Assembly: GCF_947581915.1 (NCBI RefSeq)
Contig: NZ_CANPWG010000065.1
Span: 161,181-225,180 of the forward strand
DNA length: 64,000 bases
Origin: Candidatus Palauibacter scopulicola
Lineage (GTDB): Bacteria > Gemmatimonadota > Gemmatimonadetes > Palauibacterales > Palauibacteraceae
Direction: 5' to 3'
This document shows positions 45,024-64,000 of this stretch, in pieces. The translations under genes and the position numbers were made by a program. Numbering within the stretch: the stretch's first letter is position 1; the number at the start of each line of letters is the position of its first letter. The notes beneath the pieces were generated by a model. That model saw only the letters and a program-made list of their open reading frames with translations. It did not search any database and was not told the DNA's origin.

Positions 45024-45343
45024 TGCCGGAGTCCGCGTTCGAGATCGTGAGCGCCGTGCTCATGCTGACGGGCGCCCTCTTCGCCGTCATCGGCGGGATC
45101 GGGGTCGTGCGCCTGCCCGACTTCTTCTGCCGCATCCACGGGGCCGGGATCACGGACACGCTCGGAGCGGGGCTCATCCTCACCGGGCTCATGTTCCTGT
45201 CGCCCGGGTGGATCGTGACCGCCAAGCTGGTTTCGATTCTCGTCTTCCTCTGGATCACGAGCCCGACATCCACGCACGCACTGGCCAATGCCGCGCTGGA
45301 GACCGGACTCCGACCGTACGTCGACGAGGCGGAGGAGGCGTGA
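45020..45343 (+). CDS. mrpG: Mrp-type antiporter subunit G
   Basis: MnhG signature GGIGVVRLPDFFCRIHGAGITDTLG. Confidence 0.8.
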   Translation: MMPESAFEIVSAVLMLTGALFAVIGGIGVVRLPDFFCRIHGAGITDTLGAGLILTGLMFLSPGWIVTAKLVSILVFLWITSPTSTHALANAALETGLRPYVDEAEEA

Positions 45344-45921: not shown

Positions 45922-46340
45922 CCGATCACACCATCCTGCGCGTGGTCAGCAAGTTCCTGCTGCCGTATGTCCTCCTCTTCGCCCTGTACGTCCAGTTCCA
46001 CGGCGACTACGGACCGGGCGGAGGGTTCCAGGCCGGCGTCATCTTCGCGGCCGGGTTCGTGCTCTACGGGCTGATCTACGGACTCACGGCCGTGCGCCGC
46101 GTGGCGCCGGAGCGAGTGATCGAAATCCTGATCGCGGTCGGCGTGCTCATCTTCGCCGGCACGGGCGTTCTTACGATGCTTCGGGGCGGCAACTTCCTCG
46201 AGTACGGCGTCCTGACGCCGGCGTATCCGTCGTCGGGACAGCACTACGGGATCCTCGTCGTCGAACTCGGCGTCGGAGTGACGGTCGCCGCGGTGATCAT
46301 CGCGATCTATTCGACCTTCGCGGGACGCGGGCGCCAGTGA
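45918..46340 (+). CDS. mrpB: Mrp-type antiporter subunit B
   Basis: MnhB-like (YVQFHGDYGPGGGFQAGVIFAAGFVLYGL); 140 aa. Confidence 0.75.
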   Translation: MTDHTILRVVSKFLLPYVLLFALYVQFHGDYGPGGGFQAGVIFAAGFVLYGLIYGLTAVRRVAPERVIEILIAVGVLIFAGTGVLTMLRGGNFLEYGVLTPAYPSSGQHYGILVVELGVGVTVAAVIIAIYSTFAGRGRQ

Positions 46341-46708
46341 TCGAGTCCATCTTCGACTCCGCGCTCGGACTGTACAACTACTGGGTCGTCATCTTCCTGA
46401 TGATGACGGGGTTCTACATCGTCATCTCGCGCGGGAACCTCATCAAGAAGGTCATCGGACTCAACATCTTCCAGGTCTCGGTCTTCCTCTTCTACATCAC
46501 CGTCGGAAAGGTCAGCGGAGGCACGGCACCGATCACGGCCGAGGGGTTCGAGGTCTACAGCAACCCGCTCCCCAGCGTCCTCATCCTGACCGCGATCGTC
46601 GTGGGCGTCGCGACGACCTCCGTCGCCCTCTCGCTCGTCGTCCGCATCCGTGAAGCGTACGAGACGATCGAGGAGGACGAGATCTACGCGCAGGACGACC
46701 CCCGATGA
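46337..46708 (+). CDS. mrpC: Mrp-type antiporter subunit C (NuoK-like)
   Basis: NuoK/MnhC-like three-TM protein (VIGLNIFQVSVFLFYITVG); 123 aa. Confidence 0.8.
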   Translation: MIESIFDSALGLYNYWVVIFLMMTGFYIVISRGNLIKKVIGLNIFQVSVFLFYITVGKVSGGTAPITAEGFEVYSNPLPSVLILTAIVVGVATTSVALSLVVRIREAYETIEEDEIYAQDDPR

Positions 46709-48204
46709 ACTGGCTGACCTCGGCGGTCGGAGATCAACTGCCGGTCCTGCAGGTCGTCATTCCGCTCCTGGCGGCGCCGCTCTGCATCATCCTGCGGCGG
46801 CGCTCCCTGGTGCTGCCCTTCGCGATCATCGTGTGCTGGGCCGCGTTCGGCGTCTCCGTCGCGTTGCTCCAGGAGGTGCTCGAGGTCGGCGCCATCACCT
46901 ACGAACTGGGGGGCTGGGCCGCGCCGTGGGGCATCGAGTATCGCGTCGACGCCCTCGGCGCCTTCGTGCTTCTCTTCGTGTCGGGAATCGGCGCGCTCGT
47001 GCTGACCTATGCGCCGCGCAGTCTGATCGATGAGGTTCCCGCCGGCCGGCAATACCTCTTCTGCACGCTCTACCTGCTCTCCCTCACCGGCCTGCTCGGA
47101 ATCGCGATTACCGGCGACCTCTTCAACGTCTTCGTCTTCCTCGAGATTGCGGCGCTCTCCTCGTACGCCCTGATCGCGCTCGGAGGGCGCAGGCAGGCGC
47201 TGCCCGCGGCGTTCCAGTACCTGGTCATGGGTACGATCGGGGCCACGTTCATCCTCATCGGCATCGGTCTCATGTACCAGATGACCGGGACGCTGAACAT
47301 GGTCGACATGGCCGACCGGCTGCCCGCCGTCGAGGGCATGCGGACGGCGCTCGTCGCCTTCGGCTTCCTCACCGTGGGCATTGCCCTGAAGATGGCGCTC
47401 TTCCCGCTCCACGTCTGGCTGCCCAACGCCTACGCGTACGCGCCGTCCGTCGTCAGCGCCTTTATCGCGGCGACCTCGACCAAGGTCTCCGTCTACATCC
47501 TGCTGCGCTTCATGTTCAGCGTGTTCGGGCTCGAATTCTCGTTCGAGCACCTCGGGCTGGGGCGCGCGCTCATGCCGCTCGCCCTGGCCGGGATCTTCGT
47601 GGCCTCCACGGTCGCGATCTTTCAGCGCAACATTAAGCGGATGCTCGCCTATTCGTCGGTGGCCCAGGTCGGATACATGGTCCTGGGAATCAGCTTCGCG
47701 ACGGCGACCGGGCTCACCGGGGGCATCGTCCACCTGTTCAACCACGCGCTCATCAAGGGCGGGCTCTTCATGGCCATGGGGTGCATCATGCTGCGGCTGC
47801 ACTCCGTCGACCTCGATGACATGGCCGGGATCGGACGCGCGATGCCGTGGACGATGGCCGCGTGGGCGCTCGGTGGCCTCGGCCTCATCGGGGTCCCGGC
47901 GACGGCGGGCTTCATCAGCAAGTGGTACCTCATCGAGGCGGCGTTGGAGCAGGGCAGCGTCCTCGTCGCGGTCCTCCTGCTCCTCAGTTCGCTGCTGGCC
48001 CTCGTCTACGTGTGGCGCGTGGTCGAGACCGCCTTCTTCCACGAACCGAGCGAGCGGGCGCGCGAGGCGCGCGAGGCGCCGCTTTCGATGCTGGTCCCGA
48101 CGTGGGTGCTGCTCGGCGCGACGGTCTTTTTCGGCATCTACACGGCGTACTCGGCGGGCGTGGCGGAGCAGGCGGCGGAGGCCGTGCTCGGCGGGCTCCG
48201 GTGA
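46705..48204 (+). CDS. mrpD: Mrp-type antiporter subunit D (NuoN/M-like)
   Basis: Proton-pumping NuoL/M/N family motifs (LFNVFVFLEIAALSSYALI, HLFNHALIKGGLFMAMG); 499 aa. Confidence 0.85.
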   Translation: MNWLTSAVGDQLPVLQVVIPLLAAPLCIILRRRSLVLPFAIIVCWAAFGVSVALLQEVLEVGAITYELGGWAAPWGIEYRVDALGAFVLLFVSGIGALVLTYAPRSLIDEVPAGRQYLFCTLYLLSLTGLLGIAITGDLFNVFVFLEIAALSSYALIALGGRRQALPAAFQYLVMGTIGATFILIGIGLMYQMTGTLNMVDMADRLPAVEGMRTALVAFGFLTVGIALKMALFPLHVWLPNAYAYAPSVVSAFIAATSTKVSVYILLRFMFSVFGLEFSFEHLGLGRALMPLALAGIFVASTVAIFQRNIKRMLAYSSVAQVGYMVLGISFATATGLTGGIVHLFNHALIKGGLFMAMGCIMLRLHSVDLDDMAGIGRAMPWTMAAWALGGLGLIGVPATAGFISKWYLIEAALEQGSVLVAVLLLLSSLLALVYVWRVVETAFFHEPSERAREAREAPLSMLVPTWVLLGATVFFGIYTAYSAGVAEQAAEAVLGGLR

Positions 48205-49667
48205 GCGGCATGGTGCCGCTGTACTGGGCGCTGGCGATCCCGCTCGCCGGCGCCGTGCTCATCGCCCTGTTCGGCCGCTGGCCCAACATCCGGGAAGCCG
48301 TCACGCTCGCCACCGGCGCGGCGCTCTTCTGGTTCGTCGCGTCGCTCCTGCCGCACGTCCTTGCCGGCGCGACCCCCGGGGTGCTCATGGTGCGGCTGCT
48401 TCCCGGCGGCCTCTCCCTCGTGCTCCGGCTGGAGCCCCTCGGGATGCTCTTCGCCCTGGTCGCGGCCGGGCTCTGGATCGTCACTTCGCTGTACTCGATC
48501 GGCTACATGCGGGGACACGCGGAGGTGCACCAGACGCGGTTCTACGTCTGTTTCGCGGTCTCCATTTGCGCCGCCATGGGCGTGGCGCTCGCGGGCAACC
48601 TGCTCACGCTGTTCCTCTTCTATGAGGTGCTGACGCTCTCGACCTACCCGCTCGTCTCGCACCACGGGACGCCGAAGGCGATGAAGGGCGCCCGCACGTA
48701 TCTGGGCATCCTCGTCACCACATCCGTCGCGTTTCTGCTCCTCGCGGTCGCGTGGACCTGGGTGCTCGCCGGCACGCTCGACTTCCGCGTCGGGGGGATC
48801 CTGGCCGGCCAGGCGAGCGACGGCGTGCTCCTCGTCCTGCTCGCGCTCTTCGTGTTCGGGACGGGGAAGGCCGCCCTCATGCCGGTCCATCGCTGGCTGC
48901 CCGCCGCCATGGTCGCGCCGACGCCCGTGAGCGCGCTCCTGCACGCGGTCGCGGTCGTGAAGGCCGGCGTGTTCACGATCATGAAGGTCGTCATCTACAT
49001 CTTCGGTCTCGACCTGCTGAGCGCGACCGGGATCAGCGTGTGGCTCATGTACGCCGCCGGCTTCACCGTCATCGCGGGCTCGCTCGTGGCCATGGCGCAG
49101 GACAATCTCAAGCGGCGCCTCGCATATTCCACGGTGAGCCAGCTCTCCTACATCGTCCTCGGGGCGGCGCTCGCGAACGCCTGGGGCGTGGTCGGCGGCA
49201 GCATGCACATCCTCATGCACGCCTTCGGCAAGATCACCCTCTTCTTCTGCGCCGGCGCGATCTACGTCGCGGCGCACAAGACGGAGATCAGCGACATGCG
49301 CGGGCTGGGCCGCGCGATGCCGATCACGATGGCGGCCTTCCTCATCGGGGCCCTCAGCGTCATCGGCGTCCCGCCCCTCGGCGGGAGCTGGAGCAAGTGG
49401 TACCTGGCACTCGGGGCGCTCGACGCCGGGCAGATCCTCTTCGTCGCCGTCCTCATGGTCAGTTCGCTGCTGAACATCGCGTACCTCGTCCCGATCCCCA
49501 TCCGGGCGTTCTTCTCGAAACCCGCCGACGGGTCGGACCCGCCGCGCTTCAAGGAGGCGCCGGCGTTCTGCGTCGCGGCGCTCTCGTTCACGGCGGTCGG
49601 CTGCATCGTCCTCTTTTTCCTCGCGGACGATGTGTACCGCCTGCTCGTCCCCCTGGGCGGAGGGTAA
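48201..49667 (+). CDS. second NuoL/M/N-family antiporter-like subunit (MrpA N-terminal / MrpD paralog)
   Basis: FLFYEVLTLSTYPLV, LHAVAVVKAGVFTIMKV, ILMHAFGKITLFFCAG; ~488 aa. GTGA overlap with mrpD. Confidence 0.8.
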   Translation: MSGMVPLYWALAIPLAGAVLIALFGRWPNIREAVTLATGAALFWFVASLLPHVLAGATPGVLMVRLLPGGLSLVLRLEPLGMLFALVAAGLWIVTSLYSIGYMRGHAEVHQTRFYVCFAVSICAAMGVALAGNLLTLFLFYEVLTLSTYPLVSHHGTPKAMKGARTYLGILVTTSVAFLLLAVAWTWVLAGTLDFRVGGILAGQASDGVLLVLLALFVFGTGKAALMPVHRWLPAAMVAPTPVSALLHAVAVVKAGVFTIMKVVIYIFGLDLLSATGISVWLMYAAGFTVIAGSLVAMAQDNLKRRLAYSTVSQLSYIVLGAALANAWGVVGGSMHILMHAFGKITLFFCAGAIYVAAHKTEISDMRGLGRAMPITMAAFLIGALSVIGVPPLGGSWSKWYLALGALDAGQILFVAVLMVSSLLNIAYLVPIPIRAFFSKPADGSDPPRFKEAPAFCVAALSFTAVGCIVLFFLADDVYRLLVPLGGG

Positions 49668-49670
49668 GCC

Positions 49671-49982
49671 ATGGCCGCTGACACGCACGACACGGGCGGA
49701 CGGACGAAGGACCGGGGCCGGCACTACTTCGACGATCCGAAGCGCTGGAAGCGCCTGATCGCGATCCTGGTCGTGGTGTGCGGCGTGCTGTTCGCGCTCG
49801 ACTTCGTGAATTTCCTGCAGCAGCGAATGGGGTGGTGGGAGTTGCGCCACCCGGAGCGCGACTGGGAGGGCCTGCCGCCCTTCTACGCGGTCTACGGCTT
49901 CCTCGCGTACACGGCGATCGTCTACACCGCCAAGCTGCTCCGGAAGGGCGTAATGCGGGACGAGGACTACTATGATCGGTAG
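49671..49982 (+). CDS. small two-TM membrane protein, hypothetical
   Basis: 103-aa ORF between two antiporter-subunit genes, with a good hydrophobic core (LIAILVVVCGVLFALDFVNFL...FYAVYGFLAYTAIVYTAKLL). Confidence 0.45.
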   Translation: MAADTHDTGGRTKDRGRHYFDDPKRWKRLIAILVVVCGVLFALDFVNFLQQRMGWWELRHPERDWEGLPPFYAVYGFLAYTAIVYTAKLLRKGVMRDEDYYDR

Positions 49983-51714
49983 CCTTCCTCCCGCCGCGAT
50001 CATGATCCTCGGGGCGTTGCTCGTCCCCCTCCTCCGGGGCCGTGCGCGCACGGGCTGGGTCCTCCTCCTGCCCGTCGCGAGCCTCGCCGCCCTTCTCGCG
50101 GTGGGCGAAGGAGAGTTCGGGCAGATCTCGATCTTCTCGTACGAGCTGACGCTCGTCCGGATCGACGGGCTGAGCCGGATCTTCGGGTGGCTCTTCCACA
50201 TCGCGGCCTTCATCGGGCTCATCTTCGCGCGGCGCGGAGGGAGCGCGCTGGAAGATGCCGCGGCGCTGGTCTACGCGGGCGCCGCCATCGGAGCCGTGCA
50301 GGCCGGCGACCTGATCACGCTCTTCGTCTTCTGGGAGCTTCTGGCCCTGAGTTCCGTCTTTCTGGTGTGGGCGCGCGGCACGGAACGTTCCTACCGGGCG
50401 GGGATCCGCTACCTGATCGTGCAGGTCGGCTCCGGGGTCGTCCTCCTGGCCGGCATCATCGCCCACGCGCGGGCCACGGGCTCCGTCGCCTTCGACCACC
50501 TGGGGACGGGGACCCTGGCGACGGGGACGCTGGGGACGAACCTCATCCTCCTCGGAATCGGCATCAAGGCGGCCTTCCCGCTGCTGCACAACTGGCTCAC
50601 GGACGCCTATCCCGAGGCCACCTACAGCGGCGCCGTCTTCCTGAGTGCGTTCACGACCAAGGTCGCCGTTTACGCCCTGGCGCGGGGATACCAGGGCGAG
50701 GAGCTGCTGATCTGGGTCGGCGTTGTCATGACGATGTTCCCGATCTTCTACGCCGTGATCGAGAACGATCTGCGCCGGGTGCTCGGATACAGCATGATCA
50801 ACCAGATCGGCTTCATGGTCTGCGGCGTCGGAATCGGCACCGAGATGGCCGTGAACGGGGCGGTTGCGCACGCCTTCAACGACGTGCTCTTCAAGGGGCT
50901 CCTCTTCATGTCGACGGGGGCGCTGCTCTACCGCGCGGGCACGACGAAGTGCAGCGAGCTGGGCGGACTCTACAAGAGCATGCCGAAGACGGCGGGTTTG
51001 TGCGTCGTCGGCGCCGCCTCCATCTCCGCCTTCCCGCTGTTCAGCGGGTTCGTGAGCAAGTCGATGGTGATGGCGGCGGCGCTGGAGATGAACCTCGACA
51101 TCGTGTGGCTCTTCCTCCTGTTCGCCTCGGCCGGCGTGCTGCACCACGCGGGGATCAAGATCCCGTTCTACGGCTTCTTCGGGCCCGATTCCGGGATCCG
51201 CACGAAGGAGGCGCCGACGAGTATGCTCATCGCGATGGGGATGGCGGCCTTCCTGTGCATCCTCAACGGGTCGTGGCCAACGCTGTTCCTGTATCCGAAC
51301 CTGCCGTACGAGGTGACGTACGTGCCGTTCACCCCCGCGCACGTGATCAGCCAGCTGCAGCTGCTCTTCTTCGCCGTGCTCGCCTTCGTGTGGCTGCGGC
51401 TCACCGACCGGGAACCGCACGAGCTGCCGTCGACGAACCTCGACGCGGACTGGTTCTATCGCCGATTCGGCAGGGGGCTGGCGCTCGCGGCGGGGGGCGT
51501 CTCGTCGCGGCTGCGGGAAGCCGTCGCGGCGCGCACCGTGGTCGCGGCCGGCGACGTGATCGGATCGGCCAGGCGCTACATGGGCCCGAGCGGCGTGTTG
51601 GGGCGTACCTGGCCCACCGGAGTCTCCGTCATATGGGTTGCGATCCTGCTCCTGGTGTTCCTGCTCCTCTACTACGCGACTACGCCCGTCACGAACGCCC
51701 TCCCGCCGCCATGA
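49972..51714 (+). CDS. third NuoL/M/N-family antiporter-like subunit
   Basis: LFVFWELLALSSVFLV, HAFNDVLFKGLLFMSTGALL; 580 aa. Confidence 0.8.
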   Translation: MIGSLPPAAIMILGALLVPLLRGRARTGWVLLLPVASLAALLAVGEGEFGQISIFSYELTLVRIDGLSRIFGWLFHIAAFIGLIFARRGGSALEDAAALVYAGAAIGAVQAGDLITLFVFWELLALSSVFLVWARGTERSYRAGIRYLIVQVGSGVVLLAGIIAHARATGSVAFDHLGTGTLATGTLGTNLILLGIGIKAAFPLLHNWLTDAYPEATYSGAVFLSAFTTKVAVYALARGYQGEELLIWVGVVMTMFPIFYAVIENDLRRVLGYSMINQIGFMVCGVGIGTEMAVNGAVAHAFNDVLFKGLLFMSTGALLYRAGTTKCSELGGLYKSMPKTAGLCVVGAASISAFPLFSGFVSKSMVMAAALEMNLDIVWLFLLFASAGVLHHAGIKIPFYGFFGPDSGIRTKEAPTSMLIAMGMAAFLCILNGSWPTLFLYPNLPYEVTYVPFTPAHVISQLQLLFFAVLAFVWLRLTDREPHELPSTNLDADWFYRRFGRGLALAAGGVSSRLREAVAARTVVAAGDVIGSARRYMGPSGVLGRTWPTGVSVIWVAILLLVFLLLYYATTPVTNALPPP

Positions 51715-54724: not shown

Positions 54725-56313
54725 GCGGCGCCGGGCGGAGCGACCGATCCCGCGGCCGCGATTCCAACCTCGGATACTGGCTCCGCGACGCCGCCGAGGC
54801 CTTCCCGGGCCGGGTCGCGCTCATCGACCTTTCGGGCCCCGTCCCCCGCGAAGTCACGTACGCCGAAATCGACGAGCGGATGGATCGCGTGGCGAACCTC
54901 CTCTCGGATGCCGGCATCGGGGCGGGCGACCGCTTCGTTCTGAGCGTCGGCAACCGCTTCGAGTTCGTCGAGATCCTCTTCGGAGGCATGCGCTGCGGAG
55001 CCGTCCCCGTTCCGCTCAACTTCAAGCTGTCGGAGGACTCGCTCGCGCACATCGTCCGGGACGCGGCCTGCCGGGCCGCCTTCGTCGAGACCGCGGCGAC
55101 CGAGCGCTCGGTCGCGGTCGTCGAACGGTTGGGGATCGAGAGAAGGTGGGACGTCGGCGGCGACGGCATGGGGGGCGAGCGGGGAGGCGCCGGCTGGCTG
55201 GACTACGAGAGCGCCCTCGCGGGATCGTCGCCCCGGTTCGATCCCCCGCGGCTCGATGCCCGCCGCCCGGCGTTCCAGCCCTACACGTCGGGGTCGACGG
55301 GCAAGCCCAAGGGCGTCGTCCTCTCCCACGAGGGCCAACTCTGGTGGGTGCGCTGCCTGCGGAAGTACTGGCCGGCCGACCCCGGCGACCGGGCTCTCGT
55401 CGCCGTACCCCTCTACCACAAGAACGCGATGGCCGGGGCCATCAAGCCCCTGCTGCAGGCCGGGGCCTCGGTCGTGATTCTGCCCGGCTTCTCCCCGGAA
55501 CCGTTTCTTCGGGCCCTCAGCGGGTACCGCTGTACGCAGGTGGGCGCCGTCCCCGCCGTGTTCGCGATGGTCCTGGATCGGATGGATCTGATCGAGAAGC
55601 TCGATTTCTCGGCGCTTCGGAAGGTCACGCTGGGCTCCGCCCCGGTGCAGCCCGAACTGATGGACGCGGTCGAGCGCGCGTTCGACATCGAAGTCGGCGA
55701 GAGCTACGGGCTCACCGAAGGCGGGCCGGTCATGATCGGACCTGGGCCCGACGGACGCCCGACCCCGAGGGGAAGCTGCGGCGCGGCGTGGCCCGAGGGA
55801 GAGATCAAGCTCGTGCGCGATGGCAGCGAAGATCCGGAGTACGGAGAGCTATGGGTCCGGAATCCCGGCGTCACGACGGGCTATCACAATCTGCCCGAGG
55901 TGAACGCGGCCCGGATCCGGGACGGCTGGCTCGCCACGGGCGACCTCTTCTTCCGCGACGGGGAGGGCTTCTACTACTTCCGCGGCCGCACCGACGACAT
56001 GTTCAACTCCGGCGGCGAGAACATCTATCCCAAGGAGGTGGAGGACCTGCTGCTCTCCCATCCCGATGTCCGTGACGCGACCGTCGTGCCCGTGCCCCAC
56101 GCCCTCAAGGGTGCGGTCCCGGCCGCGGTGGTCCGGCTCAGAACCGAGGCGACCGTCACGGCCGAATCCCTCAAGCGGTACACGCTCGAGCGGGGACCCG
56201 CCTATGCGCACCCCCGTCGCATCGCGATCGTGGAGGAGATGCCGCTCACCGGCGTGGGGAAGGTCGACCGGGCGGCGATCCTCGGCGTGCTGGGAGACGG
56301 CGGCGCGGGGTGA
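54721..56313 (+). CDS. AMP-dependent acyl-CoA synthetase/ligase (ANL superfamily)
   Basis: AMP-binding motif YTSGSTGKPKGV, plus GYGLTEGG, GDLFFRDGEGFYYFRGRTDD and IYPKEVE. Confidence 0.85.
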   Translation: MSGAGRSDRSRGRDSNLGYWLRDAAEAFPGRVALIDLSGPVPREVTYAEIDERMDRVANLLSDAGIGAGDRFVLSVGNRFEFVEILFGGMRCGAVPVPLNFKLSEDSLAHIVRDAACRAAFVETAATERSVAVVERLGIERRWDVGGDGMGGERGGAGWLDYESALAGSSPRFDPPRLDARRPAFQPYTSGSTGKPKGVVLSHEGQLWWVRCLRKYWPADPGDRALVAVPLYHKNAMAGAIKPLLQAGASVVILPGFSPEPFLRALSGYRCTQVGAVPAVFAMVLDRMDLIEKLDFSALRKVTLGSAPVQPELMDAVERAFDIEVGESYGLTEGGPVMIGPGPDGRPTPRGSCGAAWPEGEIKLVRDGSEDPEYGELWVRNPGVTTGYHNLPEVNAARIRDGWLATGDLFFRDGEGFYYFRGRTDDMFNSGGENIYPKEVEDLLLSHPDVRDATVVPVPHALKGAVPAAVVRLRTEATVTAESLKRYTLERGPAYAHPRRIAIVEEMPLTGVGKVDRAAILGVLGDGGAG

Positions 56314-57272
56314 GCGAGCCGCTCGTCGTCGGGGCCAGGAGGTCGCCGCTCTCCCGGGCGCAAGCCGCCTGGGTGGGCGAACGGCTGCGCGAACGCTGGC
56401 CGGAGCTGTCCGTCGAATACCGGTTCATCTCCACCGCCGGGGACCGCGATCCCGGGACGCCGCTTCCGGAGATCGGGGGGAAGGGGCTGTTCACCGAGGA
56501 CCTCGAACGCGCCCTCCGGAAAGGGGACATCGACGTCGCGGTGCATTCCCTGAAGGACCTGCCGACGGACCTCCCCGATGGATTGACGCTGGGCGCGGTC
56601 CCCTCCCGCGAAGATCCCCGCGACGTCCTCGTGGTCCGCGAATCGCCGGTTGCCGCGCCCCGGGACACGGGCGGACGCGACCTCCTCCGACGTCTGCCCT
56701 CCGGCGCACGGGTCGGCACGTCGTCGCTGCGGCGCGCCGCGCAGTTGCGCGCCGCGCGGGCCGACCTCGAGCCGCGGCCGATCCGCGGGAATGTCGACAC
56801 GCGGCTCCGCAGGCTGGAGGACGGCCGCTTCGAGGCGCTGGTGCTGGCGGCAGCCGGGCTCCGGCGGCTCGGTCTGTGGCCCCGGGGCGCCCGCATCCTG
56901 GATGAGGACTGGCTACCCGCTCCCGGCCAGGGCGCGCTCGGGCTCCAGTGTCGGGACGGAGAGGATGGCATGGCCGCTCGCGTCGGGGCGCTGGACGACC
57001 CGGGCGTCCGAGCCGAGGTGACCGCCGAGCGGGCCCTGCTCGCGGCGCTCGAAGGGGGTTGCCGGGTTCCGATCGCCGCCCGCGCGTGGCTGCGGGGGGG
57101 AGATCTCTGGCTCCGCTCAGCCGTCTACGACGTGGACGGTGGCCCGCCGGTCGAAGCGGCCGGAACGGGGTCGCGCGCTTCGGCCGGCGCACTCGGCCGC
57201 GGGCTGGCGGAACAGTTGTTGAAGGCGGGGGCGTCCCGCCTCGTGGAGCGGGCGCGGCGGCTCAGCCCGTGA
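56310..57272 (+). CDS. hemC: hydroxymethylbilane synthase (porphobilinogen deaminase)
   Basis: VVGARRSPLSRAQA, VHSLKDLP, RGNVDTRL and a C-terminal dipyrromethane cofactor Cys region. Confidence 0.9.
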   Translation: MSEPLVVGARRSPLSRAQAAWVGERLRERWPELSVEYRFISTAGDRDPGTPLPEIGGKGLFTEDLERALRKGDIDVAVHSLKDLPTDLPDGLTLGAVPSREDPRDVLVVRESPVAAPRDTGGRDLLRRLPSGARVGTSSLRRAAQLRAARADLEPRPIRGNVDTRLRRLEDGRFEALVLAAAGLRRLGLWPRGARILDEDWLPAPGQGALGLQCRDGEDGMAARVGALDDPGVRAEVTAERALLAALEGGCRVPIAARAWLRGGDLWLRSAVYDVDGGPPVEAAGTGSRASAGALGRGLAEQLLKAGASRLVERARRLSP

Positions 57273-57891
57273 GGCGGCGCGAACCGTCTCCCTGGAATCC
57301 GTACATGAGAGTCACGCATCCGGGCGTCGCCTGCGGGCAGTAATAGCTCAGGATCCTCAGCTTCGCGTAGCGCCCCTCCGCCGTCCGGATCACGTAGGTC
57401 TCGTCCTTCGGTTCGAGGAGGTGGGAGAAAAATCCGTACCGGTACCAGCGTTCGAGTCCGGGCGTCGCCGGGCCGTCCTCCAGCGCGCCCTCCGTCGTCG
57501 CGTAACCGGACGCCGGAGCCTCCGTCACAGCCTCCCACGGGGCGCCGATGGCGATCGCCCCCCCGGCCCCGGGATATCCGCTGCCACCGTTGACAACGAG
57601 GTGGTACCGGTTGAGGGCGAGGTCCCAGCCGGCGAGCGGACCGCCGACCGCGCTCCCCTTGTCGAAATCGAAGTAGACCCAGTGCGAGCCGTCCCGGGCA
57701 TCGACGGTGACGGTGTCCACGACGAACCGGTCCACGGGGGGGCGCGGGCCGACGGGAGAAGGAACGAAGGTCACGGGGTCGGGCCTCGTGAACGAGCCGG
57801 CAACGACGACGACGAGGATGAACAGGAACACGGCCCCCGCGACGTACAGTACAACCGGCCGGTCCCCGTCCGTCCGGTCCCCGCCCTTCAC
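57262..57891 (-). CDS. hypothetical membrane-anchored protein, possibly HmuY-like (tentative)
   Basis: GTG start at 57891 shares GTGA with the stop of the upstream small ORF. There is an N-terminal TM (VVLYVAGAVFLFILVVVVAG) then a beta-rich domain (WVYFDFDKG...WDLALNRYHLVVNGG...YAKLRILSYY). The similarity to the HmuY heme-binding family is from memory only and unverified. Confidence 0.45.
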   Translation of the reverse strand: MKGGDRTDGDRPVVLYVAGAVFLFILVVVVAGSFTRPDPVTFVPSPVGPRPPVDRFVVDTVTVDARDGSHWVYFDFDKGSAVGGPLAGWDLALNRYHLVVNGGSGYPGAGGAIAIGAPWEAVTEAPASGYATTEGALEDGPATPGLERWYRYGFFSHLLEPKDETYVIRTAEGRYAKLRILSYYCPQATPGCVTLMYGFQGDGSRRLTG

Positions 57892-58115
57892 CGTCCTCGG
57901 TGCCACGGGGAATCGTGCCGCGTTCCGCTCAGGAACCGGGCCAGGTTGGCGAGATAGTAGGCGAGCGCCGCCGTCGCGAGCGCGAAGATCACGCCGATTG
58001 CCAGCGCCCCGAGACTCCCGGCGCTCGCGAAGATCCGGAATTCCCACGCGGCGAAGACGGCGCAGAAGACGATGGCCGTCGCGATGAGAAAACGGTGAAA
58101 CCCGATGATCGACAT
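57888..58115 (-). CDS. small membrane protein, hypothetical (~75 aa)
   Basis: MSIIGFHRFLIATAIVFCAVFAAWEF...LGALAIGVIFALATAALAYYL. Translationally coupled (GTGA) to the downstream gene. Confidence 0.35.
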   Translation of the reverse strand: MSIIGFHRFLIATAIVFCAVFAAWEFRIFASAGSLGALAIGVIFALATAALAYYLANLARFLSGTRHDSPWHRGR

Positions 58116-58225: not shown

Positions 58226-59134
58226 TTGGAGCTTCCACTCCCCATGAGTTCCGGATTTCGCACCTACCACGAAGTGGACGAACTGCGCTCGGATCTCCCG
58301 GATCAGATCGCGGCCGGGGACGAGCGCGTGTCCGTGCGGCTCGCTTCCGTCGCCCGCGTCATCGCGGTGATGAGCGGCAAGGGCGGGGTGGGGAAGAGCC
58401 TCGTCTCCGCCCTTCTCGCGACCGCCCTCGCCCGGGGGGGGGATCGCGTGGGCCTGGTCGATGCGGACCTCAACGGCCCCAGCGTGCCGCGCCTTCTCGG
58501 CATCGAACCCGAAAGCCTCGCCGAATCCCGGGATGGGTTCGCACCGCCCGCTTCGCGCGCCGGAGTCCGCGTCATGTCGATGGCGTTCCTCACGGAGCCG
58601 GACCGCGCCCTCACGTGGCGCGAGCCCGCCGACGCCGGCTTTGTGTGGCGTGGCGCCCAGGAGCGGGGGGCCCTGCGGGAATTCCTGTCCGATGTCGCGT
58701 GGGGAGAACTGGATGCGCTCCTCGTGGACCTGCCGCCGGGTACCCAGCGGCTCGCCGAACTCCACGCGCTCGTCCCCGGAATCGCCGGCATCGTCGCGGT
58801 CACCATCCCGAGCGCCGCCTCCCGCGACGCGGTGGCGCGTTCGCTCGATCTCGCTCGGAGACGCGGCCTTCCCATCCTGGGACTCGTGGAGAACCTGTCG
58901 GGGGTTCGCTGCGACGCCTGCGGAGAGCTTGCTCCGCTGCACGCCGGTGACGCCGGGGCCGAACTGGCGGGCCGTTTCCGGGTTCCCCTGCTTGCGCGCC
59001 TCCCCTTCGATGCGGCGCTGGGGGCCGCGGCGGACGAGGGACGGCTCGAGGAATGGCTGGCGGGCGGGCGCGGAGCCGCGGAGGCGCTCCGGAAGGTGGT
59101 CGACGTGCTTCACGCGGCGCGCGCGGCGCGATGA
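58226..59134 (+). CDS. apbC: Mrp/NBP35-family Fe-S cluster carrier ATPase (ApbC-like)
   Basis: Deviant Walker A SGKGGVGKS, and a CxxC near the C-terminus (RCDACGE). Confidence 0.9.
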   Translation: MELPLPMSSGFRTYHEVDELRSDLPDQIAAGDERVSVRLASVARVIAVMSGKGGVGKSLVSALLATALARGGDRVGLVDADLNGPSVPRLLGIEPESLAESRDGFAPPASRAGVRVMSMAFLTEPDRALTWREPADAGFVWRGAQERGALREFLSDVAWGELDALLVDLPPGTQRLAELHALVPGIAGIVAVTIPSAASRDAVARSLDLARRRGLPILGLVENLSGVRCDACGELAPLHAGDAGAELAGRFRVPLLARLPFDAALGAAADEGRLEEWLAGGRGAAEALRKVVDVLHAARAAR

Positions 59135-59574
59135 AGTTCCTCTGCGTGGACTGCGACCGGCAGATGGCCTTCGACGAGCGGGCCGTGCCCGGCGACGGCA
59201 CGATGGCCGCCGTCTTCAGGTGTCCCTCCTGCGGGCGGAAGACCGCGATGCTCGCCAACCCCATGGAAACGCAGCTCGTGAGTTCGCTCGGCGTGAAGGT
59301 GGGAGGCCGCACCGTCCCGAACGAGAACTTTGAAGGCATCCGCGCCGGCGTGGAGCAGGCGCGCGACGAAGCCCCGTCCGCACCGCCGTTGACGAACCCC
59401 GGACCCGTGCGCTGGAACGTGGACGCGGTCGAGCGCCTCGGCCACGTGCCCTCCTTCGTGCGGGGGATGGTGAAGAAGATCTACAACGAATACGCCCGGG
59501 AACGCGGGATCGAGGAGATGACGCCCGCCGTCATGGACCGGGCCCGGTCCGATCTCGGCCTGGAAGGCATGTAG
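59131..59574 (+). CDS. zinc-ribbon + PCP_red-domain protein (protochlorophyllide-reductase 57 kDa-subunit C-terminal-like domain)
   Basis: N-terminal CVDCD...CPSCG zinc ribbon. The C-terminal VRWNVDAVERLGHVPSFVRGMVKKIYNEYARERGIEEMT matches the PCP_red consensus (W..EA..RL..IP.FVR......E..A...G...IT). ATGA overlap with apbC. Confidence 0.6.
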   Translation: MKFLCVDCDRQMAFDERAVPGDGTMAAVFRCPSCGRKTAMLANPMETQLVSSLGVKVGGRTVPNENFEGIRAGVEQARDEAPSAPPLTNPGPVRWNVDAVERLGHVPSFVRGMVKKIYNEYARERGIEEMTPAVMDRARSDLGLEGM

Positions 59575-59580
59575 CCGGCG

Positions 59581-59871
59581 GTGACGGATGGCGGCGGAGG
59601 GGTGAGCGATACGCGTGAAGGGGCGGGGGCTCCGGATCCGTCCGTGGAACGGGAGGTCCACGGGCTCCGCGCCGTCATTGACCGCGACCTGTGCGTCGGC
59701 TTCGGGGACTGCATCGAGGAGGCGCCGGAGGCCTTCGATCTCGACGAGGATGGGGTAGCGGTGTTCACCGGCCCGGAGCATGCCTCGCGGAAGCGCTTCA
59801 TCGAGGCGTGCGCGTCCTGTCCGGTCGATGCGATCACCGTCCTGGAAGACGGGATAGAGATCGTTCCGTGA
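59581..59871 (+). CDS. small single-cluster [3Fe-4S]/[4Fe-4S] ferredoxin
   Basis: IDRDLCVGFGDCIEEAPEAF...CASCPVDAI, a CxxGxxxC...C(P) ferredoxin pattern. Confidence 0.7.
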   Translation: MTDGGGGVSDTREGAGAPDPSVEREVHGLRAVIDRDLCVGFGDCIEEAPEAFDLDEDGVAVFTGPEHASRKRFIEACASCPVDAITVLEDGIEIVP

Positions 59872-60815
59872 ACCCCGGCGCCGCGGCGAAGCCCCCGCTG
59901 GTGACGGCGGAGGCGGTCGCCTACCGCTACCCCGATGGGAGTCCCGCCCTCCGGGACCTCTCGCTCGAGGTCCGGGAGGGAGAGCGCCTCGCGCTCCTCG
60001 GCCCCAACGGGTCCGGCAAATCGACCTTCCTCCGACTCCTCGGCGGCGACGGCGCTCCGGGGCTTCGTCGGGCCCCCGGTGTCGACGATGCCCGGCAGCG
60101 CTGGCTCGCCCCCGACCGGCCCGCCCTGCGCACGTGGCTCAGCGGGCGCGACAACGCGGCCGTCCTGCTCGAACTCCACGGCGCCGGACCCGGCGAGGCG
60201 CGCGCCACGGCGGACGCGTGGCTCGCGCGCTTCGGGCTCGAGGCGGACGCCGGCCGCCCCGCCGGCGCCTACTCGAGCGGCATGCGGAGACGGCTCGCGC
60301 TCGCGACCGCGTTCGGAACCGCGGCCCCGTTGCTCCTGCTCGACGAGCCGCTGGCCGGGCTCGATCCCGGTGGTCGGGCGGCCTTCGCCGAAGCCCTCGC
60401 CGACCACGCCGCCGACGGGGGGACCGCGGTGCTGTCCGCCCATGATCCCGTCTTCGCCGCCGCGCACTGCGACCGTGTCGCGTTCATCGTCGACGGGCGC
60501 TGCGCGGTGGTGGACACCCCGGCCCGGCTCCTGGAGCGCGTCGGCGCCCGCCCCCGCGTGGAGATCCGGTTCGCCGCCGGGCGGAGCCCCGACCCCGACA
60601 CCCTGGACCCCGCGCCGGAGGACGTGCGCACGTCGGTCTGGGACGAGAGCGCGGTGATCCTCGAGGTCGAGGACCCGAGCCGGGCGCTTCCCGAGACGCT
60701 GGCCTGGGTCCTGCGCGGCGGGGCCTCCGTCGCCTCGGTCGCCGTCCGGGAACCCAGTCTCGCGGACGCCTTTGCGACGCTCACGGGCCGGCGTCTGGAA
60801 GAGAGTTCCGAGTGA
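59868..60815 (+). CDS. ABC transporter ATP-binding protein (ABC-2 exporter type)
   Basis: Walker A GPNGSGKST, signature YSSGMRRRLALA and Walker B LLLLDEPLAGLD. GTGA overlap with the ferredoxin. Confidence 0.85.
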   Translation: MNPGAAAKPPLVTAEAVAYRYPDGSPALRDLSLEVREGERLALLGPNGSGKSTFLRLLGGDGAPGLRRAPGVDDARQRWLAPDRPALRTWLSGRDNAAVLLELHGAGPGEARATADAWLARFGLEADAGRPAGAYSSGMRRRLALATAFGTAAPLLLLDEPLAGLDPGGRAAFAEALADHAADGGTAVLSAHDPVFAAAHCDRVAFIVDGRCAVVDTPARLLERVGARPRVEIRFAAGRSPDPDTLDPAPEDVRTSVWDESAVILEVEDPSRALPETLAWVLRGGASVASVAVREPSLADAFATLTGRRLEESSE

Positions 60816-61519
60816 CGATCTGGCGCCTGGCGTGGCGCACGGCCCTGCGGCGGCGGCGGTTGTTCCTGTGGAACGTCGGGGTCCCGCTCCTCCTCCTCAC
60901 GCCCGTGGCCCTCAGCGCGACCGCGGCGCCGCACCGGGTCGCCGTCTTCGGCGTATTCATCGTCTTCTTCGGAGCCTTCGGCTCGGCCATCCCCGCCGTG
61001 CGCGACGCCCGCGACGGGTGGCTCGATGAGATCCTTCGCACCGGCTACTCCGCACCCCGCTGGCTCCTCGAGCGCACGCTCGCGGGCACGACGATCGACG
61101 CGCTCCAGCTCGCGCCCGCGGTCCTCGTCCTCCTGTGGTCGGCCGGCGGCGCCGGTGCGGGACCCGTCGTCCTCCTGTCGGCCCTCGCGACGTTGTGGTT
61201 CGCGAACCTGCTCGGTCCCCTTGTGGCGGCCGCGGTGCGTTCGCTCGCCGAAGCGGCCCTCGCTTCCGCCGCGCTTTCCCTCCTCCTCCTGCACTTCGCC
61301 GGCTTCTTCCGGACCCCCGTTCCGGGCTGGACCTCCTTCGTCGCCGAGTGGAATCCGTACGCGCCGCTGCGGGCCGCGCTCACGGCGGGCACCGGCGGGA
61401 TGCCCATGGACGCTTCCGTCTGGCTCCGCAGCCTTCTCGTCGCGGCCGGCGTGACCTTCGGGGCCGCGGTTTTGGCCTCGGATTGGAGCCGCCGCCTCCG
61501 CTGGCCGCGAACTCCCTAG
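60812..61519 (+). CDS. ABC-2-type transporter permease
   Basis: Six predicted TM segments; GTGA coupling to the ATPase. Confidence 0.6.
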   Translation: MTIWRLAWRTALRRRRLFLWNVGVPLLLLTPVALSATAAPHRVAVFGVFIVFFGAFGSAIPAVRDARDGWLDEILRTGYSAPRWLLERTLAGTTIDALQLAPAVLVLLWSAGGAGAGPVVLLSALATLWFANLLGPLVAAAVRSLAEAALASAALSLLLLHFAGFFRTPVPGWTSFVAEWNPYAPLRAALTAGTGGMPMDASVWLRSLLVAAGVTFGAAVLASDWSRRLRWPRTP

Positions 61520-61731: not shown

Positions 61732-63993
61732 ATGTATCGAGAGGTATTCGTCCCGGTCGATAACTCGCGCGAGTCGGACTGGGCCGTGGACCGGGCCATC
61801 GAACTCTGCGCTCGCTCCGGAGGCCGCATCACCGGCTCTCACGTCTACGCCGCGCGCCTCCACGACATCCGGTTTCGCCAGCTCGAGATCGGCCTCCCGG
61901 CCCAGTTCCAGGAGCCGGCGGAGATCCGCAGGCAGCGCAAGATCCACGACAAGCTGATCGAGAAGGGGCTTCAGCTCATCTCGGACAGCTTCCTGGACCA
62001 GCTCCACCGCCGCTGCTCCGAAGCCGGCGTGACCCTCACGCGGCAGCTTCTCGAGGGCATCAACTACGAGGAGATCATCAACGAGGCGAACCGCGGCGGC
62101 GGACGTCTCCCGAGCCTCATCGGTTTCGACCCGAACATCGCCCACAACTACGACGGCAGCGAGAAGCAGCGCGCGGACGTCAAGCTGGGCGAGAACGGCC
62201 GGCTCGTGGCCGAGGACGAAGAGCAGGAGGACAAGCTCGCCGGTACCTCCGGTCGCGACTACGACCTCGTCACCATCGGCGCCCACGGCCTCGGGCGGCA
62301 GGAACGGAGCCGCCTCGGCGGCGTCGTCGCGCGCGCGCTCCGCGGGATCGAGAAAGACGCGCTCATCGTCCGCGACGACCGGCCGCTGGAGGGTGGCAGG
62401 TGGCTCGTCGGCGTGGACGGGTCGGCGTACGCCTACAAGGGCCTGCGCATCGCGCTCGACATGGCCCGCGAATACGGCGCCAAGGTCTACATCGCGAGCG
62501 CCTTCGACGTGCAGTACCACCACGTCGTCTTCCACAACATCAAAGACGTGCTCTCGGTCCAGGCCTCGAAGGTGTTCAAGTTCGAGGAGCAGGAGGAGCT
62601 CCACAACAACATCATCGACAAGGGCCTGCTCCGCCTCTGCAAGGCGAACATCAAGCGGGCCGAGGTGATGGCGAGCGAGTATCCCGAGGTCGAGATCGAG
62701 ACCCAGGTGCTGGTCGGGAAGCCGTTCGACGTGCTCCTCAAGTGGGCCGAGGAGATCGATCCATCGCTCATCGTCGTGGCCCGCCACGGCTCGCACCGCA
62801 TCGAGGGCACGGACATCGGCTCGCAGGCCGACAACCTCGTCGCCCTCGCGGACGCGAACATCCTGCTCATCGGCACCGGGAACGTCCGGCCCGAGGAGAT
62901 CCCCTGGATCGAGGAGGACGGCGAGGCCGGGCTCGAGTGGGCGCCCGAGGCGGAGGTGAGGATCCTGCGCGTGCCGCCGTTCGCCCTCGGGATCGCGCGC
63001 AAGGCCGTCGAGGAGTTCGTCCTCGAACACTACGGACCCGGGAGCCGCTACGCGGCCGCCTTCGTCCCGAATCCGAAGGACGAGAAGCAGTACCGGGCGG
63101 CTCGGCCGCCGGCGGACGGAGACGCCGTGGCCGGCAATGGGGCGAGCGGCACCGCGAAGGTGGCGCGTGACGCGCTGGAGACCGGCGCGGCGCCTTCGAT
63201 CGCCGAGGTCGGAGAGGCCGCCAACGGGCGCGGGAACGCGGAGAAGACCGAACTCTGGAATCGCGACCAGCTGCCCGTCGTGACGAATGATCGCCTCGAC
63301 GAGGCGATCAAGAAGCTCCTCCCGACCCACATGCAGCTCGTGATGGGGATCGGCGACGCGGAGGAACTCGCCCTCGCCGAGGTGAAGGCGGACGAGGCGA
63401 TGAAGCGCACCGTGGTGGAGACGAGCGACGCCGACGCGTTCGAGGCCCCGCTTCCGGTGATGGCGAAGTGCCCGGTCACGGACAACCAGATCCCGCGCGA
63501 CCGCACGGCCGCCGACCCGATCGTCTGGACGCACGAGGCGTTCGAGCGCCTGGGGCGCGTGCCGCTGATCGCCCGCCCCCTCGCCCGGAACACGGTGGAG
63601 CGCTTCGCCCGCGACCAGGGCATGTGGCGCGTGACCACCGTCGTCATGGACGAGAACAAGGACGCGATGATCGCGGCCGACGAGTTCGACCTCGACACGA
63701 TGCTCGTGATGTTCAACGAGTTGAAGGCGAAGCAGGCGCGGGCCGAAGCCGCCGGCGTTGACGGCATGAGCGAGGAGATGAAGCGCTTCATCGAGGAGGC
63801 GAAGGCCTCCGGGGTGACGCGCTGTCCGATCCGCGACATCGAGCAGCAGGCGGCGGACTGTCCCGTCGACTTCAAGATGGTGTCGCCCGACGATGCCCGC
63901 GCGGCGGTCGAGAAGTTCGCGCGCACGGAGCTCGGGGACGAGTCGGAAGCGGACGCCCGTCCCGCTTCGGAGCAGGGGCCGCGCGCGAAGTGA
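61732..63993 (+). CDS. multidomain protein: tandem universal stress protein (UspA) domains + two PCP_red domains + C-terminal Cys-Pro motif region
   Basis: UspA-like 1 (MYREVFVPVDNSRESDWAVDRAIELC ... DYDLVTIGAHGLGRQERSRLGGVVARALR). UspA-like 2 (WLVGVDGSAYAYKGLRIALDMA ... LIVVARHGSHRIEGTDIGSQADNLV). PCP_red 1 (EWAPEAEVRILRVPPFALGIARKAVEEFVLEHYG). PCP_red 2 (WTHEAFERLGRVPLIARPLARNTVERFARDQGMWRVT). C-terminal RCPIRD...CPVDF. Start at ATG 61732; the ORF-track GTG is at 61696. Confidence 0.75.
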   Translation: MYREVFVPVDNSRESDWAVDRAIELCARSGGRITGSHVYAARLHDIRFRQLEIGLPAQFQEPAEIRRQRKIHDKLIEKGLQLISDSFLDQLHRRCSEAGVTLTRQLLEGINYEEIINEANRGGGRLPSLIGFDPNIAHNYDGSEKQRADVKLGENGRLVAEDEEQEDKLAGTSGRDYDLVTIGAHGLGRQERSRLGGVVARALRGIEKDALIVRDDRPLEGGRWLVGVDGSAYAYKGLRIALDMAREYGAKVYIASAFDVQYHHVVFHNIKDVLSVQASKVFKFEEQEELHNNIIDKGLLRLCKANIKRAEVMASEYPEVEIETQVLVGKPFDVLLKWAEEIDPSLIVVARHGSHRIEGTDIGSQADNLVALADANILLIGTGNVRPEEIPWIEEDGEAGLEWAPEAEVRILRVPPFALGIARKAVEEFVLEHYGPGSRYAAAFVPNPKDEKQYRAARPPADGDAVAGNGASGTAKVARDALETGAAPSIAEVGEAANGRGNAEKTELWNRDQLPVVTNDRLDEAIKKLLPTHMQLVMGIGDAEELALAEVKADEAMKRTVVETSDADAFEAPLPVMAKCPVTDNQIPRDRTAADPIVWTHEAFERLGRVPLIARPLARNTVERFARDQGMWRVTTVVMDENKDAMIAADEFDLDTMLVMFNELKAKQARAEAAGVDGMSEEMKRFIEEAKASGVTRCPIRDIEQQAADCPVDFKMVSPDDARAAVEKFARTELGDESEADARPASEQGPRAK

Positions 63994-64000
63994 CCGGGGC

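Follow-up and report, generated by a model that had tools for sequence, protein, structure and literature searches.

What is the function of a protein in which two universal stress protein (Usp) domains are joined to two copies of the PCP_red domain? The question is raised by a gene at positions 61,732–63,993 of a 64,000-nucleotide stretch of DNA (the window) from Candidatus Palauibacter scopulicola, a member of the Gemmatimonadota. We find that this gene, referred to here as the target, is operon-locked, co-inherited and co-transcribed across at least six phyla with a gene encoding a radical S-adenosylmethionine (SAM) enzyme that carries a PCP_red domain of its own and resembles the haem b synthase AhbD. 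To judge from sequence, the most probable role of the target is to bind a nucleotide and assist late haem synthesis for the adjacent respiratory complexes, rather than to act as a general stress protein. The proposition that it acts as functional partner of a tetrapyrrole radical-SAM enzyme is one to which we give an even chance, and the individual mechanistic steps set out below are less certain than this general claim.

Genes in the window, which has a GC content of around 70%, were called by GC content at the third codon position. The target open reading frame (ORF) comprises 753 codons and a stop, begins with an ATG (MYREV..., as in its homologues) that has a GGAG 7–10 nucleotides to its 5′ side, and has a third-position GC content of 0.92, which fits a real gene in DNA of this composition. 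The product is a predicted cytoplasmic protein made up of a tandem Usp half and two PCP_red domains. Its parts, and the start of the gene that follows, are these:

61732–62373 (+; residues 1–214), Usp domain 1 (Pfam, AlphaFold2 model and alignments)
62395–62877 (+; residues 222–382), Usp domain 2 (best Pfam stretch 225–380, model and alignments)
62932–63057 (+; residues 401–442), PCP_red copy 1 (profile built for this analysis, E 3.8e-15; second Pfam stretch)
63058–63270 (+; residues 443–513), low-complexity Ala/Gly/Asp linker, variable, with a predicted local distance difference test score (pLDDT) below 50
63271–63519 (+), helical segment (residues 514–562) and small β-sheet (residues 563–596) with C580 (KCPxT), conserved
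63520–63675 (+; residues 597–648), PCP_red copy 2, complete (profile built for this analysis)
63676–63993 (+), C-terminal helical region with RC698PIRD, C710PVD, a helix remnant (residues 720–735) and an acidic tail; stop codon at 63991–63993
63990–64000 (+), first 11 nucleotides of the next gene (radical-SAM/SPASM/PCP_red, AhbD/NirJ2-like), with a GTG start, matching contig L001 from position 12259 onward

The radical-SAM gene

The window ends 7 nucleotides past the stop codon of the target and its last letters read ...aaGTGAccggggc (GTGAccggggc), so that the GTG start codon of the next gene overlaps the TGA stop of the target (GTGA). Genes beyond this point can be seen in L001, a contig that encodes a 97%-identical target protein and that the end of the window matches from position 12259. 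Here, the gene directly 3′ of the target (12259–13671) encodes a 470 amino acid Radical_SAM–SPASM–PCP_red protein, with Pfam matches to Radical_SAM and SPASM, the sequence CNLACAHC (the CxxxCxxC radical-SAM motif) and a Cys-rich SPASM segment. The stop codon of this gene in turn overlaps the start of a CydA-like gene. Since stop and start codons overlap at both junctions, translational coupling of the three genes is suggested.

The full-length NCBIfam matches of the partner are best to NirJ2 (TIGR04055, 271–311 bits) and to the AhbD haem b synthase (TIGR04545, 268–297 bits), with other radical-SAM families scoring much lower: no more than about 150 bits for PqqE, MftC and the sactipeptide maturases, 83–95 bits for MoaA and 73 bits for the tungsten-cofactor maturase. 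AhbD converts coprohaem to haem b by an oxygen-independent decarboxylation and, to our knowledge, the canonical enzyme has no accessory protein of the target's kind. AhbD is known in organisms that use the coproporphyrin pathway without other Ahb enzymes (PMC13564367). The partner shares with AhbD and NirJ the CxxxCxxC motif and the SPASM domain as well as the best full-length model matches, and in some lineages it is adjoined by a HemY-type oxidase; it differs from them in its additional C-terminal PCP_red domain (four to five copies when fused) and in its sub-equivalog scores. A profile search with the partner recovered the same taxa as the target, with PCP_red present in all of the best 120 matches, and some members of the partner family have been named 'AdoMet-dependent heme synthase' by the Joint Genome Institute.

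How firmly are the two genes linked? Synteny within the Gemmatimonadota was followed in 80 species genomes, counting those loci with enough flanking sequence, and the radical-SAM gene is found directly 3′ of the target, on the same strand, in all 66 species loci for which 3.5 kb or more of downstream sequence is available. For other phyla, the sample consisted of eight looked-up loci and 80 metagenome loci, the latter biased towards relatives of the first sequence in the alignment; MoaA-query cross-matches on the radical-SAM gene were filtered from the counts, as were 'PCP4' matches at about +1 kb, which are the target's own repeats. A radical-SAM–PCP_red gene lies within 4 kb of the target in 23 of 27 non-Gemmatimonadota metagenome loci and in all seven of the looked-up loci that extend for 3.5 kb or more to either side. 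The check on gene-neighbourhood conservation that the original prediction had proposed has turned up a pairing, usually of overlapping genes, that is conserved across at least six phyla.

Fusions provide a second line of evidence. In two loci, L090 (12234–14255) and L103 (12217–14361), the radical-SAM/SPASM/PCP_red enzyme is fused to a protein with four PCP_red copies, which in L006, L007 and L092 is the product of a separate gene of about 320 codons; a HemY-type oxidase and a sigma-54 two-component system are encoded 3′ of the fused gene. Similarly, a ribbon–PCP_red unit is internal to the target homologue or encoded separately, depending on the phylum. Such lineage-dependent fusion and splitting of the PCP_red proteins encoded in the cluster is typical of proteins that are partners, physically or functionally.

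The two halves of the target protein

Both domain types are matched well above their curated Pfam cut-offs: PF00582 (Usp) at E 7.4e-30 (104.8 bits, cut-off 24; three stretches) and PF08369 (PCP_red) at E 4.2e-15 (56 bits, cut-off 32.5; two stretches). An AlphaFold2 model of the target, built on a 40-sequence alignment, has a pLDDT above 90 in both Usp cores. Foldseek matched this model to Rv2623, TTHA0350 (with ATP) and UspE at E 1e-15 to 1e-11, the structures matched including 3CIS, 3AB8, 4R2J and 5CB0; around 390 columns align to tandem Usps, with template modelling scores, normalised to the target, of 0.7–0.8. In common with the tandem Usps of Mycobacterium tuberculosis (Rv2623), Thermus thermophilus (TTHA0350) and Escherichia coli (UspE), the target has two Usp α/β domains in a single chain, and the G-x2-G-x9-G-S/T nucleotide loop is kept in its family, with one substitution per domain in the Gemmatimonadota. 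In Usp1 the sequence PVD is found at residues 8–10 and the loop reads G183-AH-G186-x9-G196-G; in Usp2, VDGS is found at residues 228–231 and the loop reads A350-RH-G353-x9-G363-S.

The differences from known tandem Usps are considerable. The target extends C-terminally by about 370 further residues, in which its PCP_red domains and Cys sites are found, and its gene stands in a fixed operon with that of a radical-SAM enzyme. Both Usp domains possess an unusually long, highly conserved α2 hairpin (residues 41–98 in Usp1) in which His, Asp and Arg residues are among those invariant from Gemmatimonadota to Nitrospirota: H44, D45, R47, F48, E52, Q68, R69, H72 and D73 in Usp1, and H263, F267, Q287, E288 and H291 in Usp2. 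Usp1 additionally contains a 53-residue insertion (residues 123–175) that is seen in all Gemmatimonadota members and in no other phylum.

In the C-terminal half, the PCP_red profile built for this analysis identifies exactly two copies, at residues 401–435/442 (E 3.8e-15) and 597–639 (E 9.6e-22). The three-helix PCP_red fold is present in the target, although the first copy stops after helix 2 and the third helix is missing. A third copy, in residues 514–562 or at the C-terminus, was considered and rejected, the profile finding only a 12-residue remnant within residues 720–735. The linker (residues ~443–513) is conserved neither in length nor in sequence and is modelled with low confidence; for residues 549–644 the pLDDT exceeds 90.

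Of the six cysteines in the target, three never vary among 58 Gemmatimonadota sequences: C580 (KCPxT), C698 (RCPIRD) and C710 (CPVD). Homologues from other phyla possess one to three copies of a rubredoxin-like ribbon (CxxC...CPxC), with the second knuckle of which C580 aligns, and on the strength of this alignment we take the ribbon to have degenerated in the Gemmatimonadota protein, residues 563–596 being its remnant. Two CxxC knuckles of the RUBY_RBDX type are not found in the target itself, where only C580 is left at the second-knuckle position. We also considered the target as a protein substrate of the radical-SAM enzyme, and rejected this because its conserved cysteines are not kept across phyla.

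In dark-operative protochlorophyllide oxidoreductase (DPOR), the C-terminal helix of the BchB subunit covers the cavity that holds protochlorophyllide (Pchlide) (PMC4071322). The target is not a DPOR subunit of this type: the nitrogenase-like three-domain body of BchB/ChlB is absent, with Usp in its place in the N-terminal half, the match to the BchB model TIGR01278 (32.8 bits, where the cut-off is 490) is confined to model positions 455–510, and no bchN/bchL (chlN/chlL) genes are found in the window or at any locus examined. Compared with the BchB/ChlB C-terminal domain and with small stand-alone PCP_red proteins (PDB 2KRU and Nostoc Asr4154, 2L09), PCP_red in the target is repeated, fused to Usp and, in copy 1, truncated.

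The relatives of the target form a large family. A first protein search, in which 8000 candidates were scored, found 2132 protein clusters among them at E ≤ 0.001. When the full set of 1.84 billion cluster representatives was scanned with HMMER, 1312 matched at E ≤ 0.001 and 234 at E ≤ 1e-30. Relatives are encoded in at least 581 species-representative genomes. The closest public protein (97% identical) comes from a Gemmatimonadales metagenome-assembled genome and other close relatives are labelled Candidatus Palauibacter, which are sponge-associated Gemmatimonadota. Across the orders of the Gemmatimonadota the target is about 70% identical, and all 120 clusters of the Gemmatimonadota type have two PCP_red copies. 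Full-length relatives at 35–45% identity have the architecture Usp–Usp–(PCP_red)3–7, with or without rubredoxin-like ribbons, and are found in the Nitrospinota, the Nitrospiria (Nitrospirota), Candidatus Manganitrophaceae, the Mariprofundaceae (Zetaproteobacteria), SAR324 and the Binatia.

Much of what had been read from the letters of the window survives this analysis. The original prediction described two Usp domains, the first with a long insertion, fused to two PCP_red copies that are separated by an Ala/Gly/Asp linker and end in an RCPIRD...CPVDF motif; each of these elements is seen in the Pfam matches, profiles and alignments above, and the ORF is real, its length alone needing correction from 754 to 753 amino acids. 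The claim that there is no obvious characterised homologue also stands: NCBIfam contains no family-level model for the target, its matches being at domain level and limited to the ends of the BchB models (final ~55 positions) and of the UspE/UspF models (final ~65 positions), a PDB sequence search likewise gave domain-level matches only, and a literature search found no relevant work on PCP_red and no description of the target protein or its module. Finally, a mis-assembled Usp–PCP_red fusion, which the prediction had raised as a concern, is excluded because the architecture is shared by over 120 protein clusters, drawn from assemblies that are independent of one another and include complete chromosomes, and by the species genomes counted above.

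Neighbouring genes

Upstream of the target, and on the same strand, the following genes are found:

58226–59134 (+), Mrp/ApbC/NBP35-type P-loop ATPase (Pfam ParA/NUBPL PF10609, E 7.8e-63)
59131–59574 (+), Zn-ribbon–PCP_red protein of 147 amino acids (CxxC...CxxC and one PCP_red; Pfam PCP_red, E 1.5e-12)
59581–59871 (+), small single-cluster ferredoxin (CxxxxxC...CP; Pfam Fer4_13, E 7.6e-11, and Fer4_15)
59868–61519 (+), ABC transporter: ATPase (59868–60815) and ABC-2 permease (60812–61519) (Pfam ABC_tran and ABC2_membrane)

The Mrp/ApbC-type ATPase has a deviant Walker A motif (SGKGGVGKS) and the sequence CDAC (CxxC) and is of the Fe–S cluster carrier type; the true start of its gene is probably near 58244, and the best NCBIfam match of its L001 orthologue is to MrpORP, with 218 bits, below the cut-off of 450. 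The start of the Zn-ribbon–PCP_red gene overlaps the stop of the ATPase gene. Genes for the ParA-type ATPase and the Zn-ribbon–PCP_red protein lie within 10 kb of the target in 45 of 45 Gemmatimonadota loci with enough flank, the ferredoxin gene is conserved beside them, and a CydA-like gene (of the OR-N2 type, with an EB_dh cytochrome c) is found within 10 kb in 44 of the 45. In the compact arrangement seen in the Gemmatimonadales, the genes are close-packed in the order ParA-type ATPase, Zn-ribbon–PCP_red, ferredoxin, target, radical-SAM and CydA-like. The original prediction had placed the Zn-ribbon–PCP_red, ferredoxin and ATPase genes correctly and had proposed a link to them, which synteny bears out; it made no mention of the ABC transporter between these genes and the target. 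This transporter was set aside, its ATPase being encoded in only about 19 of the 80 Gemmatimonadota loci and missing from the compact arrangement; the transporter is a lineage-specific insertion and is unlikely to belong to the system.

Lineage-specific too are the genes for HemC, an AMP-binding enzyme and Nramp upstream of the target; together with a zinc-dependent alcohol dehydrogenase, these were rejected as partners because they are absent from most Gemmatimonadota loci. The hemC gene (porphobilinogen deaminase, 56310–57272, +) lies 4.5 kb upstream of the target and, outside the Palauibacter-like clade, keeps this position in just a few loci. An HmuY-like protein (PF14064, a haem-binding hemophore family, E 1.3e-14) is encoded at 57262–58047 (−), divergently and upstream of the ParA-type gene, and at the same position in about 20 of the 80 Gemmatimonadota loci. 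Like hemC, this recurrent gene adds to the haem-related neighbours of the target. A predicted membrane protein of 126 amino acids, unmatched in Pfam and NCBIfam, is encoded near the target in 31 Gemmatimonadota loci (for example, L004 9274–9654), in several of them directly upstream of it; the gene is not present in the window.

Downstream of the radical-SAM gene, L001 encodes a 606 amino acid CydA-like protein and three cytochromes c, the last of which is fused to an EB_dh domain (NxrC/EbdC-like), followed by a CarboxypepD_reg protein and the COX2, COX1 and COX3 subunits of an aa3 oxidase. In the Gemmatimonadota the OR-N2-type bd-like cluster is always followed by aa3-type COX2, COX1 and COX3, forming a respiratory super-operon behind the radical-SAM module (L001 13668–22262). 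The CydA-like, cytochrome c and EB_dh genes match the OR-N2 type of cytochrome bd-like complex, as presented in the supplement to bioRxiv 10.1101/2021.01.16.426971, and the bd-like_3/alt-NxrC_2 cluster of Nitrospira presented in PMC6606698. With the clusters of this kind in Nitrospira, Nitrospina and anammox bacteria, those of the Gemmatimonadota and SAR324 share a CydA-like protein of 14-transmembrane-helix size, two cytochromes c and the cytochrome c–EB_dh fusion; in Nitrospira, by contrast, the Usp–PCP_red module is encoded elsewhere in the genome. Keyword searches of these two sources returned no mention of a Usp–PCP_red or radical-SAM accessory module.

Outside the Gemmatimonadota, the surroundings of the target–radical-SAM pair are more varied. 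The CydA-like/EB_dh cluster lies within 10 kb in seven of 16 metagenome loci, and a separate Zn-ribbon–PCP_red gene is found in only one of 16, the ribbon here being internal to the target homologues. A HemY-type oxidase is encoded within 6 kb in 14 of 38 metagenome loci, always directly 3′ of the radical-SAM gene where present, and the protein passes TIGR00562 (257 bits against a cut-off of 97.85). A small CopD/DUF4149-type membrane protein is encoded within 6 kb in 16 of the 38, and one CopD-like copy gives a sub-threshold but full-length match to the HemJ family UPF0093 (E 5.8e-5). Because HemY-type and CopD-type genes do not occur together in any of the 80 metagenome loci, the two proteins may be alternative porphyrinogen oxidases. 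The CopD/DUF4149-type proteins are 150–175 amino acids long and are encoded directly after the radical-SAM gene in Nitrospirota-type loci and one gene later in L006 (L005 13594–14121, L006 15213–15674, L091 13432–13959 and L092 13437–13889); an N-terminal NHWLHL...W.GG motif is common to those of L005 and L006.

Several other genes were noted along the way. A HEAT/PBS-lyase-like repeat protein of 725–822 amino acids adjoins the module in zetaproteobacterial, SAR324 and related loci (L007 939–3116, L008 12442–14640, L090 6235–8703 and L103 6477–8930), and three of these four loci also have an adjacent gene for a CarboxypepD_reg protein, which in the Gemmatimonadota is encoded after the cytochromes c. 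On the Nitrospira-like contig L091 (5922–8505, −), SAM synthetase and S-adenosylhomocysteine hydrolase are encoded upstream of the target and in divergent orientation, an arrangement that fits a SAM-consuming module. Further from the target, the window has an LptE-like gene and, behind it, an operon for a multi-subunit Na+/H+ antiporter of the Mrp type (MnhE, MnhB and three Proton_antipo_M proteins; 43590–51714, +). It also encodes the selenocysteine-specific elongation factor SelB (33776–35704, +), from which it is likely that the organism uses selenoproteins. Just upstream of the SelB gene lies a 473 amino acid ORF (31584–33005, +) with a strong coding signal and no Pfam match at E ≤ 1e-5.

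A possible partner in haem synthesis

The evidence points to a role in tetrapyrrole or haem handling, rather than in general stress or Fe–S metabolism, because it is HemY-like proteins, a cytochrome bd-like complex, cytochromes c and an aa3 oxidase whose genes adjoin the module. This is where the original prediction falls short: in reading the protein as a nucleotide-sensing stress module coupled to a generic redox or Fe–S interaction domain, it missed the radical-SAM/SPASM–PCP_red partner that lies beyond the end of the window, and the context is one of haem and tetrapyrroles. The nucleotide sensing that it proposed for the Usp half is plausible from the loop motifs, which are intact in other phyla and slightly altered in the target.

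How might such a partner work? The PCP_red domains would bring about docking of the target, the radical-SAM enzyme and the Zn-ribbon–PCP_red protein around a substrate or product of the haem type, perhaps acting as lids that close over the ligand, by analogy with the BchB helix of DPOR. A Cys-ligated site, which would be the rubredoxin-like ribbon in most phyla and the three Cys-Pro motifs plus the separate Zn-ribbon protein in the Gemmatimonadota, could pass electrons to or from the auxiliary clusters of the radical-SAM enzyme, or could hold a metal. The tandem Usp domains would bind an adenine nucleotide and so gate either formation of the complex or hand-off of the haem, the likely recipients of which would be the membrane apoproteins encoded downstream, namely those of the cytochrome bd-like OR-N2 complex, the cytochromes c and the aa3 oxidase. 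The upstream ferredoxin and Mrp/ApbC ATPase may supply electrons and Fe–S clusters, respectively, to the radical-SAM enzyme.

A number of observations weigh against this proposal. The partner falls below the AhbD and NirJ2 equivalog cut-offs (268–311 bits against 500), so that its substrate is inferred from resemblance. The Gemmatimonadota nucleotide loops carry one substitution each, S/T to G in Usp1 (GAHG-x9-GG) and G to A in Usp2 (ARHG-x9-GS), although the UspFG-type loop G-x2-G-x9-G-(S/T) is intact in both Usp domains of homologues from other phyla. The eighth looked-up locus, L089 from the Nitrospinota, has no radical-SAM gene downstream and less than 1 kb of upstream flank. In Nitrospira and Manganitrophus the module is not beside the bd-like complex, and molybdenum-cofactor genes are found nearby in two lineages.

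These and other features of the locus could be read differently. Usp proteins are typically regulatory nucleotide binders and the ATP motif is conserved in the target family, which would suit a pure sensor or regulator in which Usp senses ATP, AMP, cAMP or the energy or oxygen state and PCP_red senses free tetrapyrrole, the protein doing no more than switch the radical-SAM enzyme or the operon, with no role in docking, electron transfer or hand-off. Usps encoded beside respiratory operons are known to rise at low oxygen in Nitrospira marina (PMC8115632), although they were not identified there as members of the target family. We consider such a role unlikely: identity of ~70% across Gemmatimonadota orders is very high for a regulator, the target has no DNA-binding or signalling output domain, and the three to seven PCP_red repeats, the metal ribbons and the fusion of PCP_red to the enzyme are better suited to a structural or stoichiometric partner. 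The simplest label, that of an ordinary stress protein in a coincidental neighbourhood, or of a mis-assembled fusion, agrees with the public annotation of the family, but in the face of synteny across at least six phyla and of the recurrence of the architecture in independent genomes and closed chromosomes we give it virtually no credence.

The respiratory genes invite another reading, in which the target is an assembly factor for the bd-like (OR-N2)/alt-NxrC complex or for some other metallo-cofactor, such as the molybdenum cofactor or copper, and the radical-SAM enzyme is a maturase for a protein or for a cofactor other than a tetrapyrrole, with no connection to haem synthesis. Besides the frequent proximity of CydA-like and EB_dh cytochrome c genes documented above (44 of 45 Gemmatimonadota and seven of 16 metagenome loci), this draws on the CopD-like and cupredoxin genes that neighbour the module, on the zetaproteobacterial locus L007, where MoaA, MoaC, MoaE, ModABC and a molybdopterin enzyme surround it, and on MoaA near the module in L090. 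The separation of the module from bd-like genes in Nitrospira and Manganitrophus-type loci speaks against it, as does the HemY-like gene that follows the radical-SAM gene in 14 of 38 loci, and MoaA and the tungsten-cofactor maturase are far more distant from the radical-SAM core than are AhbD and NirJ2; we regard this reading as quite improbable. No better placed, in our view, is the idea that the tandem Usp half is itself catalytic, an ATP-using tetrapyrrole enzyme (performing, for example, a metal-inserting or adenylating step) with PCP_red as substrate lid. Residues atypical of Usps are indeed invariant across phyla (H37, H44, D45, R47, E52, Q68, R69, H72 and D73; H263, Q287, E288, H291 and H355), and there are operons with HemY-like and AhbD-like genes but no recognisable ferrochelatase gene in the 10-kb flanks examined. 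A ferrochelatase may, however, be encoded outside these flanks, a fold search with the target returns ordinary tandem Usps only, and we know of no Usp-fold protein that acts as a chelatase.

Returning to the target as a helper of late haem synthesis, it is a variant built from known domains, and the coupling of its gene to an AhbD-like enzyme and to bd-like complexes appears to be undescribed. A bolder and distinctly tentative extension, to which we attach a low probability, is that the Usp–PCP_red protein and the PCP_red-tagged AhbD-like enzyme constitute an undescribed variant of terminal haem synthesis, with the target as its dedicated, ATP-gated partner. Such a variant may be used by nitrite, manganese and iron oxidisers, by SAR324 and by the Gemmatimonadota, and may include a HemY-type oxidase or HemJ/CopD-like protein. 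Within it the target may, by way of its Cys-metal sites, be the electron donor or acceptor that has long been missing for AhbD-type enzymes; it may be a haem chaperone for the bd-like and aa3 complexes; or it may be the missing metal-inserting enzyme, and more than one of these roles may apply.

The family to which the target belongs is large and occurs in organisms responsible for nitrification, for the oxidation of manganese and iron and for sponge symbiosis, but its members are annotated in public databases only as 'universal stress protein'. If the target is indeed the partner of an AhbD-like haem synthase, it would provide the first functional handle on PCP_red outside chlorophyll synthesis and a candidate answer to the question of how AhbD-type enzymes exchange electrons or release haem, and its gene would serve as a genetic marker for the cofactor supply of cytochrome bd-like (OR-N2/alt-NxrC) complexes.

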